The notes beneath the pieces were generated by a model. It was given only the letters and a program-made list of their open reading frames with translations, had not been told where the DNA came from and did not search any database. Source: Chitinophagaceae bacterium (GTDB lineage: Bacteria; Bacteroidota; Bacteroidia; Chitinophagales; Chitinophagaceae). Taken from it: a stretch of 64,000 bases of DNA. Each line of letters opens with the position of its first letter. The first letter of the stretch is position 1. The DNA lies in NCBI GenBank assembly GCA_019247775.1, contig JAFBAN010000248.1, positions 97 through 64,096 on the forward strand, given 5' to 3'. The translations under genes and the position numbers were made by a program. Positions 15,597-37,040 of the stretch are shown piece by piece.

Positions 15597-17099
15597 TTAC
15601 CCGATGCTATAGCTCATCCCGCCATCCTTTTCATCTTTCAGTTGCACGCCCAGTTCGGCCAGTTCATTCCTGATCTTATCGCTGGTTACAAAATCCTTGC
15701 GGCTTTTGGCTTCTTTGCGGATGTCGATGAGGAGCTGAAGCACGCCATCCAGCTTGCCGCCATTTTCCGTGCGTTCATTTACAAGGCCGAAGATCTCTTC
15801 CACAAATAATTTCATCTGCCGCCGCAGGTTGGCAACAGTTTCTTTAGCCAAAGCCGAAGCAGGTATATGTTTGTCCTTGATGGAATTGATCACCGGCACC
15901 AGTTCAAACATGTTGGCGAGCACTTTGGCCGTGTTGAGATCATCATTCATGAATTCATCAAACTCATTCGCCAGCTTTTGCACTTTTGCATCCAGCTCCG
16001 CATCGGCGCCATCGCCGCCCAGCCCTTCCTGCTGCTGCAGCCATTCATGGGCTTCCATCAGTCTCTTTAAGGCTTTCTCAGCCCCCTGCAAAGCTTCATT
16101 GCTGAAATCGAGCGTGCCGCGGTAGTGGCTCTGCAGAATGAAGAACCGGACAGTCATGGGCGCATAGGCCTGCGTAAGCATGGGATGTTCGCCGCTGAAC
16201 AGTTCTGTTAACCTGATCACATTGTTATAGCTCTTCCCCATTTTCCGGCCGTTGATGGTGATCATATTATTGTGCAGCCAGTAGCGGGCCATCATCTTAT
16301 GATTGCAAACAGCGCTCTGCGCGATCTCGCACTCATGGTGCGGGAACTGCAGGTCCATACCGCCACCATGGATATCGAACTCATCGCCGAGGTATTTTTT
16401 ACTCATGGCCGAGCACTCGATATGCCAGCCCGGAAACCCTTCGCCCCAGGGGCTCTGCCAGCGCATGATATGCTCCGGCGGCGCATTCTTCCAGAGCGCG
16501 AAATCGCTTTTGTTGCGTTTGTCTTCCTGGTTATCGAGGTCGCGGGTAGTATCGATCTGGTCTTCCAGTACCCGCCCGCTGAGTATGCCATAAGGCTGAC
16601 CCTTCTTCGAAAAATCGGTATTGTATTTCTCCACATCGAAATACACCGAGCCGTTCGCTTCATAAGCATATCCTGCAGCAATGATCTTTTTGATCATTTC
16701 GATCTGTTCAATGATATGGCCTGTAGCGGTAGGCTCTATTGCCGGCACCAGGTTATTCAGGCGGTTCATGGCCCAGTGATAGAGATTGGTGTATTTATGT
16801 ACCAGCTCCATCGGTTCCAGTTTTTCGAGCACTGCTTTTTTGCTGATCTTGTCTTCGGCTTCTCTCCCCTCTTCTTCAAAATGGCCGGCATCGGTGAGGT
16901 TGCGCACATAACGGACCTTATAACCCAGGTGCATCAGGTACCGGTAGAGTACATCGAAGGTCACATAAGGCCGTGCATGACCGAGATGGCTTTCGCCGCT
17001 CACCGTTGGTCCGCATACATACATACCCACATAGGGGGGATTGATGGGCTGGAACGTTTCTTTCTGACGGGTTAATGAATTGTATACTTTGAGTGACAT
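15597..17099 (-). CDS. cysS: Cysteinyl-tRNA synthetase
   Basis: YVCGPTV, HLGH (HIGH-like), [27 protein letters not shown] and KMGKS. ATG at 17099. Confidence 0.98.
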
Positions 17100-17157
17100 G
17101 TAAAGGAGTTGCGTTAAAGATGACAAACAGATTCCTGCTCCCGCACGGGGGCGCTGA

Positions 17158-17199
17158 TCAGCAACAGCAGCAACAACAGGATATGAGCGGGTGTCTCAT
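17158..17199 (-). CDS. Putative polycysteine leader peptide MRHPLISCCCCCC upstream of cysS
   Basis: atg aga cac ccg ctc ata tcc tgt tgt tgc tgc tgt tgc tga. The stop is 58 nt before the cysS ATG. Confidence 0.75.
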   Translation of the reverse strand: MRHPLISCCCCCC

Positions 17200-17206
17200 G
17201 GAGCGA

Positions 17207-17214
17207 CGAAGATA
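17207..17214 (-). promoter_or_regulatory. -7 element variant (tatcttcg) ahead of the polyCys leader
   Basis: One mismatch to TAnnTTTG, 7 nt before the leader ATG. Confidence 0.5.
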
Positions 17215-18318
17215 TTATTTTTTCAGAAGAATATCGGATACCAGCATAAGGTGGTCGCTGAGGTTCTCGTCTACCAGGTCTACCTGCCTGATATCGAAAC
17301 GCGGGTCGGCCAGTATATAGTCGATCCGCAACGTGGGCGCCAGGCTGAGAAAACTGCGCCCGATGGCAAAACCTTTTTTCAGAAAAGCATCCTGCATATT
17401 GCCTTTGATCCTGAAATACGCATACGAGTTGGGCACATCATTGAAATCTCCCGATATGATCACCGGATGCCGGCTCTTATCGATCTCAGTCCTTACCATA
17501 TCTGCCTGGATACCGCGGCGGATAAAAGCCAGCTTCATTTTTTTCACCAGGCTTTTCGATGCCTCCAGGTTGCCTTTTTCCTGGTCGCGCACTTTTTCCA
17601 TATCATCATAATCCTCCGGCTTGAATTTGAACGATTGCAGGTGGGTGGTAAAGACGCGGATGGTATCATCGCCTTTTTTCAGATCCACATAGATCAGGCT
17701 CTCCGCCACAGGATAGGCAATACGGCCGGAGTCTACGATCGGGTACCTGGAAAAAATAATGCATCCCGAGAGGTAATTACCGCCATCCCGCTGGTAATCC
17801 CGGGAAAAAAAATAGTAGGGATACTGCTTGCTGAAAAGTGAGATATTATCTGCAGCCGTGGCGGTATTGAACTCCTGCATGCAAACGATATCCGGCTGGT
17901 GACGCAGCACCGTTGCCGCCAGTTCGGTAGGCGCCAGTTTTCTTGCATCCTTTGCTTTGGAAAGACCGTTAAAGCTCTGCACATTCCAGTCTATCAGCCG
18001 CAGGCTGTTCTCCGGTTTGCGCTTCGAGAACCCCGCGCCGGGATGCCAGGCGAATACTACGCTCAGCTGCTGCCAGCCTACCAGCAGGGTCACCAATGGC
18101 AGCAACGCCCAGACCGGTCTTACTGTAAGCCAGATGATGATAAAAAAGACCAGCACAAGAATAAGATAAGGCACTGCCAGTCCGGCGAAGCCTGTGATCC
18201 ACCAATTCTTCGGGTTCACATAGGGGGTGAGGCAGGCAACCAGGAAAAGAATGGAGATAAGGATATTGATGCTGATCAGCAAAGTTTTAACCGCACGTCC
18301 GAAGAAAGTCCTGGCCAT
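17215..18318 (-). CDS. Endonuclease/exonuclease/phosphatase family membrane protein
   Basis: N-terminal TM segments, WNVQSF, CMQEF, THLQS, SGDFND, LRIDYI and SDH. Confidence 0.9.
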   Translation of the reverse strand: MARTFFGRAVKTLLISINILISILFLVACLTPYVNPKNWWITGFAGLAVPYLILVLVFFIIIWLTVRPVWALLPLVTLLVGWQQLSVVFAWHPGAGFSKRKPENSLRLIDWNVQSFNGLSKAKDARKLAPTELAATVLRHQPDIVCMQEFNTATAADNISLFSKQYPYYFFSRDYQRDGGNYLSGCIIFSRYPIVDSGRIAYPVAESLIYVDLKKGDDTIRVFTTHLQSFKFKPEDYDDMEKVRDQEKGNLEASKSLVKKMKLAFIRRGIQADMVRTEIDKSRHPVIISGDFNDVPNSYAYFRIKGNMQDAFLKKGFAIGRSFLSLAPTLRIDYILADPRFDIRQVDLVDENLSDHLMLVSDILLKK

Positions 18319-18355
18319 GGTTAAAATTAATGAAATTCAGGGGGACAAATTATTT

Positions 18356-18468
18356 TCCTGCGTGCCCTGCGATCCTTTGCGTTCCCTGCGTTACAAATCC
18401 GCAAGTTTCAGTATAGCAAAGATCGCAAAGGATCGCAGGGAACGCAAAGAACCGCAGGGGGCGCAGGG
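18356..18468. repeat. ctttgcg/cgcaggg-unit palindromic element
   Basis: ccctgcgatcctttgcgttccctgcgttac...atcgcaaaggatcgcagggaacgcaaag. Confidence 0.85.
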
Positions 18469-19401
18469 TTATAGCTGTTCTTTGCTGGCGCGTTTGAGGA
18501 AATCTTTTTCTTCCTCGCTGAGGCCGTCGTATCCTTTCTGGTTGATCTTGTCGAGGATGGCATCCAGTTTCTGCTGGGTGATATTCGCTTTTTTCTCAAA
18601 CGGCTTGCGGTCAGACAGGTAATGCAGGCGCTCTGCAGACCCACGCTTTTTTTTGTCGGGATGGAAAAGATCGTTCAGCCAATCCACCAGGTTATTCATC
18701 CACGCAGCCCAGTCGCGGCCGCGTTTCATCTGGTGAATAAAGAGAAATCCGATCAGTCCGGCGCCAAGATGCGCGATCGCCACAGGTGCATTGCCCTTGC
18801 CCACCGTTCCAAAATCAATGGCCACGTAAACAAGCGTAAGTACCCAGAGCGGGATGCCTCCGCCGATCAATGGAAAGATGCGATAATCCGGCGCCAGCGT
18901 AGTGGTAGCGATAGCGATGGCCATTACCGCCGCACTCGCGCCAAGCATGGAGCCGATAGCTGTTCCGTTCGGCAACAGGTTAGCGGCGAGCAGAAAACAA
19001 AGGGCCCCGGTAAAACCGCCATAGAGATAAATTGGGATCATTTTATTATTCCCGGCCAGATCCTGCAGGATAAAACCGAAACCCCATAACCAGAGCATAC
19101 TGCTTACCAGGTGCCAGAAGCTGTAGTGCGTGAACATGTACATTACCATGGTCCAGGGCCTGCCGGCAAGCGTATCTGCGGAAGCCGGTAACACCAGCCA
19201 GTTGAGGATCTGTTTCTGAAAAAATTCCATCGGAATATCAGAGAGCTGGTAGATCATGCTCAGGATATGCAGGGCCGCGAACATGATCATGTTGGCGGCG
19301 AACAGCAGTACCAGGGCATTATTGTCCTGCCCCAGTAAGATCTTCGGATTTTTTCTATAGGTTGATGAGCTTGCCATAGTTCTCACTTCATTAACGTTCA
19401 C
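18469..19401 (-). CDS. Rhomboid family intramembrane serine protease with DUF6576-like C-terminus
   Basis: HLVSSM, GASAA, HLGAG and LDKINQKGYDGLSEEEK. GTG start at 19401 or ATG at 19377. Confidence 0.9.
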   Translation of the reverse strand: MNVNEVRTMASSSTYRKNPKILLGQDNNALVLLFAANMIMFAALHILSMIYQLSDIPMEFFQKQILNWLVLPASADTLAGRPWTMVMYMFTHYSFWHLVSSMLWLWGFGFILQDLAGNNKMIPIYLYGGFTGALCFLLAANLLPNGTAIGSMLGASAAVMAIAIATTTLAPDYRIFPLIGGGIPLWVLTLVYVAIDFGTVGKGNAPVAIAHLGAGLIGFLFIHQMKRGRDWAAWMNNLVDWLNDLFHPDKKKRGSAERLHYLSDRKPFEKKANITQQKLDAILDKINQKGYDGLSEEEKDFLKRASKEQL

Positions 19402-35000: not shown

Positions 35001-37040
35001 CTTCCGCGCCACCATTGTAAGAATGGTTGCCACGCCTACGATCTCGTCTGTTTCATCCATCATTTCCACGAGCCATTTTACGATACCACGCGGGATATCG
35101 GTTGGCTCTTTTTGTTCCTGCCCTGTTTTTTCCTTGCAGGTGAACCGCACATAGAATTCGGCGCCGGGATAAACCGGTTTTGTAAACCGCAGTTCATCGA
35201 TACCGTAATTCAGCAGCACCGGGTTTTTCTCATAGCTGTCCACAAATAATCCTGCCGCTGCACTGATGAGAAAATAACCATGCGCTACCTGCCGCTCAAA
35301 CATGGTACCTGCAAAATCTGTTCCCGTGAGATGGGCGTAGAAATGATCCCCACTCAGGTCTGCAAAGCGGTTGATGTCTTCGGCGGTGATCAGTCTTTTT
35401 TCCGTTACCAGCTGATCCCCGATCTCCAGTTCCTCGAAATATTTTTTGAACGGGTGGATGCCGTCGGTACGCCTTGTAGCCCCGGGCTGGAACACGTTGC
35501 TCACCGCCGTGATCATATCCGGCGAGCCCTGGATAGCCACCCGCTGCATATAATGTTTCACGCCGCGGATGCCGCCCATTTCCTCGCCACCGCCTGCGCG
35601 GCCAGGGCCCCCATGCACCAATAAAGGCAGGGGCGATCCGTGTCCGGTACTTTCTTTGGCACACTGGTTATTGAGTATGAGGATGCGGCCATGATAGGTG
35701 CCTGCTCCGAGTACATATTTTTTGGCGACGGCCGGATCTGCCGTTACCACCGAACTCACCAGCGAGCCCTTACCCATTTTGGCCAGGGTGATGGCTTCTT
35801 CCGTGGTGGAATAAGGCATCAAGGTGGAAACGGGCCCGAAAGCTTCCACTTCATGCACTTCCCGGCTGGTGTGCGGCTGTTCATTCAGCAGCAGGATGGG
35901 GCTCATGAAAGCGCCTCTCGCCGCATCGGCATCGATCAGTTCAACACTGTCGAGCGAGCCGTAGATGATCTGCGAGGAAGCCAGTAATTTCTGCACCTGT
36001 GCTTTTACTTCCTTGCGTTGCGATTCGCCTGCCAGTGAACCCATCCGCACTTTTTCATTGAGTGGATTTCCGATGGTGGTTTGGGCCAATGCTTTCCCCA
36101 ATGCAATGCCGATATCTTTCAGTTTATTTTCAGGAACGAAAATGCGGCGGATAGCGGTGCACTTTTGTCCGCATTTCGTGGTCATTTCTTTCCGCACTTC
36201 TTTGATGAATATATCCCATTCCGGCATGCCGGGAGTTACGTCTTCACCCAATACAATGCAGTTGAGGGAATCGGCTTCCATGGTGAAAGGAACGTTCTGT
36301 TCCAGGATATTTTTGCCCGATTTAAGCATGAGTCCGGTGGAAGCCGAACCTGTAAAGCTCACTACATCCTGTGCAGTCACATGATCGAGCAGGTCGCCCG
36401 CGCTTCCACAGATAAGTTGCAGCGCACCCTTCGGCAGAATGCCTGAAGCGTCTATCCGCCGTACTACCGATTCGGTAAGAAAAGAGGTAATGGTAGCCGG
36501 CTTCACTACCGCAGGCACGCCGGCCAGCAGGTTAACTGCAATTTTTTCCAGCATACCCCATACCGGGAAATTGAATGCATTGATATGCACGGCAACCCCT
36601 TCTTTGGGAATGAGCAGGTGATGGCCCATAAAGGTGTTTGCCTTTCCCAGCTGATGATGTTCGCCATCGAGGCAGTAAGGCGTATCCGGAAATTTCCGGC
36701 GCAGCGAAGCATAGGAAAACAGGTTGCCGATACCGCCTTCGATATCCACCCAGCTGTCTGCCCTGGTAGCGCCGGTGCGATAACTGATCTGGTAAAATTC
36801 TTCAAGATGCTCCCGCAGGTAGAGGGCAAGTGAACGCAGCATCAGTCCGCGCTCGTGAAAACTCATCTTCCGCAGAGCGGGATTGCCCGTTTCGCGGGCG
36901 TAGTTGAGAATGGCAGCAAAATCCAGCCCTTTGGTAGAAGCCCTCGCAACAGGTTCGCCTGTGATAGCATTGAAAAGGACCTGCCCGTCGCCGTCACCTT
37001 TAATCCAGCGGCCGGTTACATAATTTTCGGTACTAAGCAT
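34992..37040 (-). CDS. paaZ: Bifunctional oxepin-CoA hydrolase/aldehyde dehydrogenase PaaZ
   Basis: INAFNFP, FTGSA, EADSLN, GQKCTAIRR, EAFGPV, HGSPLP and C-terminal MaoC domain SGDHFYAH. -7 box at 37045-37052. Confidence 0.95.
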   Translation of the reverse strand: MLSTENYVTGRWIKGDGDGQVLFNAITGEPVARASTKGLDFAAILNYARETGNPALRKMSFHERGLMLRSLALYLREHLEEFYQISYRTGATRADSWVDIEGGIGNLFSYASLRRKFPDTPYCLDGEHHQLGKANTFMGHHLLIPKEGVAVHINAFNFPVWGMLEKIAVNLLAGVPAVVKPATITSFLTESVVRRIDASGILPKGALQLICGSAGDLLDHVTAQDVVSFTGSASTGLMLKSGKNILEQNVPFTMEADSLNCIVLGEDVTPGMPEWDIFIKEVRKEMTTKCGQKCTAIRRIFVPENKLKDIGIALGKALAQTTIGNPLNEKVRMGSLAGESQRKEVKAQVQKLLASSQIIYGSLDSVELIDADAARGAFMSPILLLNEQPHTSREVHEVEAFGPVSTLMPYSTTEEAITLAKMGKGSLVSSVVTADPAVAKKYVLGAGTYHGRILILNNQCAKESTGHGSPLPLLVHGGPGRAGGGEEMGGIRGVKHYMQRVAIQGSPDMITAVSNVFQPGATRRTDGIHPFKKYFEELEIGDQLVTEKRLITAEDINRFADLSGDHFYAHLTGTDFAGTMFERQVAHGYFLISAAAGLFVDSYEKNPVLLNYGIDELRFTKPVYPGAEFYVRFTCKEKTGQEQKEPTDIPRGIVKWLVEMMDETDEIVGVATILTMVARKVQ

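Follow-up and report, generated by a model that had tools for sequence, protein, structure and literature searches.

What does a run of cysteine codons do directly ahead of the gene for cysteinyl-tRNA synthetase (CysRS)? This question is raised by a 64,000-nt stretch of DNA from a Chitinophagaceae bacterium (GenBank assembly GCA_019247775.1, contig JAFBAN010000248.1, positions 97 to 64,096 of the forward strand), here called the window, in which the synthetase gene cysS is preceded on the minus strand by a small open reading frame (sORF) that ends in six consecutive cysteine codons. Judging from comparison with related sequences, this sORF is very probably a cis-acting leader peptide by which the ribosome measures charged tRNA-Cys and adjusts the expression of cysS. 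The observations as a whole are best explained if ribosomes that stall while translating a near-leaderless leader peptide sense Cys-tRNA(Cys), a reading that we consider likely. A cysteine-sensing leader had already been proposed in a preliminary description of the locus; the interpretation is now supported by a comparative census and by a conserved geometry in which a promoter box is followed by 4–7 nt and an ATG.

Layout of the cysS leader

The layout given in the preliminary description (box, 7 nt, ATG, six codons, six cysteine codons, TGA, 58 nt, cysS) proved exact when the minus strand was re-read and translated. The -7 promoter box TATCTTCG (tatcttcg, 17207–17214), which is of the Bacteroidota sigma-A type TAnnTT[T/C]G, lies directly after the stop codon of the upstream gene, and a gap of 7 nt (tcgctcc, 17206–17200) separates it from the ATG of the sORF (17199–17197). 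The sORF (17158–17199) has 13 codons and encodes MRHPLISCCCCCC: the ATG is followed by AGA CAC CCG CTC ATA TCC, then by the cysteine tract TGT TGT TGC TGC TGT TGC (17161–17178), the proposed site of ribosome stalling if charged tRNA-Cys is scarce, and finally by TGA (17160–17158). As read from the sequence, a spacer of 58 nt (17100–17157) extends from this stop codon to the cysS ATG at 17099. The gene itself (15597–17099, also on the minus strand) encodes a protein of 500 aa with the Pfam domains tRNA-synt_1e (1.7e-98) and DALR_2. The closest named relatives of this CysS are those of Sediminibacterium, and it shares 85% identity with CysS of Sediminibacterium roseum. The host genome comprises 4.04 Mb in 248 contigs, with 50% G+C.

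Occurrence of the leader in Chitinophagaceae

The census of relatives used one genome per genus of Chitinophagaceae (146 genera) and a criterion fixed beforehand: an ORF of at most 40 codons starting with ATG, containing at least three consecutive cysteine codons and ending 25–120 nt before cysS. A polycysteine leader was found in 31 of the 146 genera, with spacers of up to 118 nt, and a further seven had only a Cys-Cys pair. The same search for runs of any other amino acid gave at most 4 of 146 (Leu), and cysteine runs on the opposite strand gave 0 of 146. Among the best 80 CysS loci from named genomes (Sediminibacterium, Segetibacter, Deminuibacter, Parafilimonas and Ilyomonas), about half had a leader; examples are MTHPHLHTCCCC in S. 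roseum, a peptide ending in MKFLRINNLPCCCCCC in Segetibacter aerophilus and MTTHSVFTILSCCPCCCRRSK in Deminuibacter soli.

Pooling yielded 48 distinct cysS leaders within the family. They contain three to eight cysteine codons, which share the frame of the ATG in every case and stand at the stop codon or beside it, and between the ATG and the tract there are typically six to eight unconserved codons, more in some. All three stop codons are used (TAA 28, TGA 17, TAG 3), and the spacers of the aligned leaders measure 43–81 nt. The preliminary description had taken the mixed use of TGT and TGC in this one tract as a sign of selection on cysteine coding; over the 48 leaders the mixture persists (TGT 143, TGC 109) while the other residues are not conserved. 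Its suggested check, a search ahead of cysS in relatives for polycysteine sORFs that vary synonymously, was thus positive. The sensor reading is favoured because the ATG, the frame, the cysteine run and the adjacent stop codon are kept while the other residues and the choice between TGT and TGC vary.

These data also bear on whether the tract is a reading frame at all, or else a product of chance, a trinucleotide microsatellite or a promoter element, namely the TTG of a -33 box. The repeat (TGY)n does include TTG, and out-of-frame runs of four to five cysteine codons occur inside genes about 65 times in this genome; counted in any frame, runs of at least four number 66, nearly all of them out of frame inside genes. 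However, a run of at least six cysteine codons in any frame occurs only once in the 4.04 Mb, in the cysS leader, where it mixes TGT and TGC; by our estimate, a uniform composition would give about 0.01 such runs per genome. With ATG, frame and stop codon kept throughout the 48 leaders and the opposite strand empty in the census, the microsatellite, chance and -33 box readings are contradicted by the comparative data, and we give them practically no weight.

A search that started from the codons instead of the gene led to the same place. Of 401 genomes of the order, 213 matched the pattern of five cysteine codons followed by TRR (TAA, TAG, TGA and also TGG), far more than matched the reversed control. 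Of those listed, 80 stop-ended matches were retrieved, and most lay inside long ORFs. Ten of the 80, each with at least five cysteine codons, were intergenic sORFs of at most 30 codons beginning with ATG; eight of these ten sit 54–71 nt upstream of cysS, all in Chitinophagaceae and in six genera. One locus (L063, G339:C1:146009-146209) has five cysteine runs plus TGA at a spacing of 45 nt, but long open frames extend across these runs on both strands, up to 474 codons on the opposite one. The runs were therefore dismissed as leaders and probably reflect a repeat protein read out of frame.

The alignment of 21 cysS upstream regions from the genus shows what surrounds the leader. A conserved box, AAAATAAAATATCTT[T/C]G, immediately follows the upstream gene. 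In 18 of the 21 species there is no leader, and the cysS ATG follows the box after 5–23 nt (at most 14 nt in all but one). In the other three, box and cysS are separated by an insert that opens with an ATG at a distance of 7 nt from the box: these are the present genome, one with MSYPHTYCCCCCCC and another order of TGT and TGC (G022), and one with MLRCCAKYC (G013), each ending at a stop codon. Leader-bearing and leaderless cysS appear, from the alignment, to replace each other at the same promoter in Sediminibacterium relatives. The preliminary description had regarded absence from relatives as evidence against the leader; it is present in 31 of 146 genera but absent from most close relatives.

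The element is not universal in the phylum. No such sORF was found before cysS in eight other families of the order, and outside Chitinophagaceae only 2 of 379 genomes of the phylum sample had a cysS-linked polycysteine run, a count obtained with a YN[ST]L anchor and hence of limited sensitivity. One of these two, from another class (L387), has the full layout: CTATCTTG, 7 nt, an ATG, the peptide MKHTNSHTLLCTSCCCC with its stop codon, and then AAGCAACA. Within the family, possession of cysH was compared by eye with the presence of the cysS leader, and no clear link was seen (cysH is present in about 22 of the 31 genera with a leader and in about 89 of 151 overall).

A separate observation concerns a genome of another family of the same class (G563, locus L379), whose CysS is 48% identical. 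The run CCCCTCCC, closed by a stop codon, lies there 71 nt before cysS; it has no in-frame ATG, and ATT ATT stands ahead of it. This may be either a leader with a non-AUG start or a decayed one.

A second polycysteine leader upstream of cysH

If the sORF senses cysteine, other cysteine-linked genes might carry one as well, and the same genome has a second polycysteine sORF. On the minus strand of contig C54, at about 6499–6396, the sORF MTEAKRYKPVCAMLPCCCCC (or MLPCCCCC), again closed by a stop codon, ends 41 nt before cysH (PAPS_reduct). The ORFs downstream of cysH resemble, by eye, cysD, cysN, a sirohaem-synthesis methyltransferase gene and a sulfite-reductase flavoprotein gene. Among the cysH loci of the family, 20 of 30 have an sORF with at least three consecutive cysteine codons 41–80 nt upstream, and several of the remaining 10 have an sORF with a cysteine pair. 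Cysteine sensing gains support because this second polycysteine leader heads an operon for sulfate assimilation, cysH-cysD-cysN, in the same genome.

Leader peptides for other amino acids were also identified in this genome. A his leader peptide, MRTFAHTHHHHYLPQG (HHHH), lies before a hisG-like gene (contig C191, minus strand, ATG at 36356), and a phe leader peptide, MKTMAANTFYFFFYYFFEKRSRVVFVKA (FFFYYFF), lies before a prephenate-dehydratase-like gene (contig C242, minus strand, ATG at 2889). Both are near-leaderless and share the arrangement of the cysS leader, with a box, 7 nt and an ATG, and both are followed by strong terminators with GC-rich stems of 9–11 bp and then 7 to 9 U. Classical attenuators thus exist in this organism.

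Two further observations concern cysteine-rich leaders elsewhere. Between the TAnnTTTG box and the ATG of the cysH leader there is a conserved motif, (T)TTnGTAGACTAAT (C54, about 6510–6500; loci L191–L220), which also stands ahead of two polycysteine leaders of TonB-dependent receptor genes (L106 and L079) and may be an operator or 5'-untranslated-region (5' UTR) element of a sulfur regulon. The form GTAGACTAAT was considered as the mark of a wider regulon in this genome and set aside, as the cysH leader is the one place where a -7 box accompanies it. The two receptor leaders are MKPNFLPKTFCINSHCSLHCCCCCCC in a genome of the same genus (L106, G231) and a 40-codon ORF ending in QLYCCCCC (L079, G184); they lie 101–128 nt before genes for TonB-dependent receptors with Plug and CarbopepD_reg domains. 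These receptors may take up sulfur compounds and be under the same control.

Promoter geometry and the 5' end

In about 40 of the 48 leaders, a TAnnTT[T/C]G box ends 4–7 nt (mode 7) before the ATG of the sORF. The spacing of the sigma-A box from the transcription start is known from Flavobacterium psychrophilum, where the box covers -12 to -5 (PMC9723704). From this geometry and the position of the box relative to the ATG, we infer that the sORF mRNA is near-leaderless, with a 5' UTR of about 0–3 nt. Such near-leaderless mRNAs make up only 3.7–5.5% of the mRNAs in the two Bacteroidota mapped so far.

Can a ribosome initiate efficiently so close to a 5' end? In the relatives without a leader, the cysS ATG takes the place of the sORF ATG after the box, so that the essential cysS mRNA appears to be leaderless in most Sediminibacterium relatives (ATG 5–14 nt after the box). 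Initiation at this 5'-proximal position can therefore serve an essential gene, which argues, by analogy of position, that it is efficient at the box-proximal ATG of the sORF as well.

The spacers between sORF and cysS are poor in G and rich in C. Pooled over the 48 leaders they contain 26% A, 25% C, 12% G and 37% U, with a median C/G ratio of 2.0; the value ahead of 2,150 long ORFs in this genome is 1.17. The spacer of this genome is less skewed than the pooled ones (C 31%, G 22%).

RNA structure of the leaders

RNA structure was analyzed by comparing the leaders with shuffled sequences and with other windows; since related sequences are not independent, all p-values are indicative only. A small hairpin around the stop codon is, as far as the aligned sequences tell, the one conserved RNA feature of the leaders. 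The first 14 nt after the stop codon pair with the last cysteine codons with a mean duplex energy of -5.3 kcal/mol over the 48 leaders, compared with -2.6 kcal/mol for other windows and -2.4 kcal/mol for shuffles (Wilcoxon p = 9e-8 and 9e-10), and the energy is -5 kcal/mol or lower in 32 of the 48. The stems change with codon choice (GCUG/CAGC, GUUGC/GCAAC, GUUGU/ACAAC, CUGC/GCAG). The hairpin usually precedes a pyrimidine- and U-rich stretch, and the combined score of hairpin and tail is -3.96, compared with -1.40 for shuffles (p = 3e-5). In the window, the post-stop segment UCAGCG (17152–17157) is complementary to GCUG of the tract, which gives a small hairpin enclosing the stop codon.

A second pairing partner lies further downstream in this genome. 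The distal segment UGCGGGAGCAGGAA (17132–17145) pairs with UCC and the start of the tract and forms the outer stem of the minimum-energy fold; the tract itself pairs with GGGAGCAGGA (17141–17132), which is followed by the U-rich stretch UCUGUUUGUCAUCUUU (17116–17131), a weak terminator or pause tail at best. This distal pairing amounts to -16.4 kcal/mol, compared with -11.2 kcal/mol for shuffles (p = 0.05). In related Sediminibacterium leaders, a hairpin and then YUGUUUC are found at the place matching 17116–17131. Of the pairings proposed in the preliminary description, UCCUGUU with AGCAGGA is present in the minimum-energy fold, whereas the suggested alternative hairpin is without statistical support.

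Other searches for a regulatory structure were negative. A scan for sigma-70-type promoters and terminators gave nothing at the leader, and no Rfam family matched the leader in a scan of positions 16000–18500 at E ≤ 10. Constrained folds gave no recurrent alternative helix that might act as an antiterminator. Masking of the cysS start region was rejected as a general mechanism, as the predicted accessibility from -20 to +12 is unchanged by a stalled ribosome (0.63 vs 0.65, p = 0.25). Nor is there any enrichment of pairs between the tract and the initiation region, be it for cysS (p = 0.55; 6 of 48) or for cysH (p = 0.12; 5 of 23).

A proposed mechanism and its alternatives

In the mechanism we favour, transcription would start 0–3 nt before the ATG, as the promoter geometry suggests, and the ribosome would load at the 5' end and translate seven codons and then the six cysteine codons. 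When Cys-tRNA(Cys) is plentiful, the ribosome would reach the stop codon at once and leave; when it is scarce, because of low cysteine or low CysRS activity, the ribosome would stall on the tract. The stall would raise the output of cysS, and the same logic would apply to the polycysteine leader of the cysH-cysD-cysN operon; this direction of control is assumed because it fits both cysS and cysH. For the read-out of the stall we tentatively suggest, with less than even confidence, a weak hairpin-dependent pause or termination event, with the stalled ribosome sitting on the 5' arm of the hairpin. The cysteine tract would serve as the 5' arm of hairpins, the conserved one formed with the post-stop bases and the second, in this genome, formed with GGGAGCAGGA ahead of the U-rich stretch. 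A stalled ribosome would block their formation as RNA polymerase passes and so relieve the pause or termination. Since the tract itself would be the 5' arm, no antiterminator is needed in this model.

Several results weigh against the proposed leader or its read-out. Most close relatives lack the leader (18 of the 21 species in the genus sample). The minimum-energy fold of the leader is not more stable than that of shuffled sequences (z = +0.72), and covariation in the stop-codon hairpin is modest, with own partners at -5.34 and swapped partners at -4.58 (p = 0.027). As a general feature, the distal arm was rejected (mean z = -0.40; p ≤ 0.05 in 9 of 48 leaders). Terminator scans find no canonical terminator in the cysS leader, as the preliminary description had remarked, nor in this genome's cysH leader, although the strong terminators of its his and phe leaders, which served as positive controls, were detected; of the cysS leaders, only 14 of 48 pass a simple terminator scan, with stems of 5–7 bp. 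A second, perfect TAnnTTTG box (TACCTTTG or TACTTTTG) lies 32–55 nt before cysS in 13 of the 48 spacers, where 1.7 are expected (among them L082, L109, L143, L151, L153, L156, L157 and L171); some lineages might use it as an internal or separate cysS promoter, or it may belong to the U-rich tail. Finally, by our own reasoning, a near-leaderless mRNA leaves the ribosome little time before the polymerase passes, unless the polymerase pauses.

Since a canonical terminator was not found, attenuation of the tnaC type, dependent on Rho, has to be considered. Here the naked, G-poor and unstructured spacer would load Rho after a normal stop and end transcription early in cysS, and a stalled ribosome would shield the start of the site. 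The G-poor, C-rich composition of the pooled spacers agrees with this, and because the tract abuts the stop codon, a stalled ribosome should by its geometry cover about 12–15 nt of the spacer. The spacers measure only 43–81 nt, though, and a stalled ribosome would mask little of them; the spacer of this genome is the less skewed one, and G-poor leaders are also needed for initiation in a phylum without Shine-Dalgarno (SD) sites; we regard Rho-dependent attenuation as unlikely. Translational attenuation as in mycobacteria, where the mechanism is proven for Ms5788A, would have the tract pair with the downstream initiation region and a stalled ribosome free that region. The cysH leader of this genome offers such a pairing: its tract GCUGUUGUUG pairs over 10 bp with CAACAACAGC, at -14 to -4 of the cysH AUG (-16.2 kcal/mol, p = 0.013). 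For cysS, on the other hand, the accessibility of the start is the same with or without a stall, pairing with initiation regions is not enriched, and the partner of the tract in the window lies 32–45 nt before the AUG, so that this route seems improbable. Alternatively, a ribosome that halts about 20 nt into the transcript might stabilise the mRNA by shielding it from 5'-end-dependent decay, like the erm leaders in Firmicutes, with no structural switch at all. The near-leaderless start, the nearly constant distance from the ATG to the first cysteine codon (six to eight codons in most leaders) and the lack of both a terminator and start-site masking would suit this explanation, but it leaves the conserved stop-codon hairpin unexplained, and we rate its chances as similarly low.

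The sORF might also have nothing to do with the regulation of cysS, being a separate tiny gene for a polycysteine peptide (for example, a metal- or redox-active one) or a remnant, while cysS has its own promoter in the spacer. The excess of second TAnnTTTG boxes, the many relatives without the sORF and a terminator-like hairpin right at the end of the sORF in nine leaders are in line with such a gene. However, the window's own spacer has no second box, conservation is confined to the cysteine run and its position, and the arrangement recurs ahead of two cysteine-linked operons that are unrelated, those of cysS and cysH; a separate gene is accordingly very unlikely. A broader version of the leader reading joins all the loci into one cysteine regulon of Chitinophagaceae read by ribosomes, which would comprise cysS, the cysH operon and a TonB-dependent receptor. 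It would work with neither a terminator nor masking of an SD site, the stall would melt the stop-codon hairpin, the read-out would be of a kind so far undescribed for amino-acid leaders in this phylum, and evolution would toggle between this device and a leaderless cysS. Exclusion of Rho, release of a paused polymerase and protection of the 5' end are candidate routes from stall to expression in that case. We regard this regulon as conceivable but doubtful.

Comparison with known systems

The principle of leaders with cysteine codons is known. Leaderless polycysteine sORFs have been shown experimentally to be cysteine-responsive attenuators in mycobacteria (Ms5788A, the 'Cys ribulon'; Canestrari et al. 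2020, 10.1101/834739, Mol Microbiol 114:93), which bears out the precedent named in the preliminary description. Like these, the present element is an unannotated sORF at a predicted 5' end, with a run of consecutive cysteine codons (six in a 13-codon ORF here, three to eight in relatives), in cis to cysteine-linked operons. It is likewise found at more than one locus per genome (cysS and the cysH operon), has no classical terminator, and its stall is expected to switch genes on. Unlike the mycobacterial type, it is driven by promoters with a sigma-A -7 box and has no SD site to mask. Its cysS tract is not paired with the start region, a pairing present only in the cysH leader of this genome; its cysteine run is C-terminal and abuts the stop codon, and the stop-codon hairpin is conserved. 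Its target is a synthetase, and cysS does not occur in the text of 10.1101/834739.

Leaders with cysteine codons ahead of cysS itself have been proposed in other phyla. In Deinococcus deserti, a leaderless sORF with cysteine codons on the cysS leader was proposed as an attenuator (2014, PMC4007540); it has only two cysteine codons, its start was mapped by differential RNA sequencing (dRNA-seq), cysS has an SD site there, and the phylum is unrelated. In Rhodobacterales, the uORFC-8-2 motif upstream of cysS contains an upstream open reading frame (uORF) with tandem cysteine codons and was assigned to ribosome-mediated attenuation (Brewer et al. 2021, PMC8632094). It resembles the present element in having a uORF with tandem cysteine codons before cysS, and its cysteine codons lie in a stem; it differs in having just two cysteine codons at positions 14–15, two stems and a U-run terminator, in not being leaderless, and in belonging to Alphaproteobacteria.

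With the trpL/hisL attenuators the sORF shares the form of a short leader ORF with clustered codons for the cognate amino acid, but there is no Rho-independent terminator between the sORF and cysS. In E. coli, tnaC-tnaA is controlled through Rho, and the stalled ribosome masks a Rho utilization (rut) site next to the stop codon. The present leader resembles tnaC in that stalling is proposed for the very end of the ORF and that the spacer behind it is unstructured and has no terminator; in tnaC, however, the stall arises from the nascent peptide and free tryptophan at the stop codon and not from a shortage of charged tRNA. A literature search found no report of such a leader in Bacteroidota, in agreement with the earlier remark that it was uncharacterised for cysS in this phylum. 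What is unusual here is the near-leaderless start in a phylum lacking SD sites, the terminal cysteine run, the hairpin at the stop codon and the absence of a terminator.

Significance

The regulation of aminoacyl-tRNA synthetase genes and of sulfur assimilation is poorly known in Bacteroidota, which make little use of SD sites and, to our knowledge, lack T-boxes. If the reading as a stalling leader peptide is true, it adds to a large environmental family a conserved cis-sensor for cysteine that is easy to test, with cultured carriers in Sediminibacterium roseum SYL130, Segetibacter aerophilus NBRC 106135 and Deminuibacter soli. It would also mean that near-leaderless translation is put to regulatory use in a phylum in which leaderless mRNAs are few. 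The contrast within one genome, between his and phe leaders with strong terminators and cysteine leaders with none, could reveal a read-out of ribosome stalling that is independent of terminators. For annotation, the leaders represent ORFs of 12–20 codons that are missed by gene callers.

Neighbouring sequences

The upstream neighbour of the leader is a gene of the Exo_endo_phos family (17215–18318), whose TAA stop codon occupies 17217–17215. The gap upstream of that gene contains a long inverted repeat (18351–18473 of the window), which accounts for all hits of the Rfam scan, weak matches to microRNA-precursor-like families on both strands, with E-values of 0.004–0.2 and scores far below the gathering scores.

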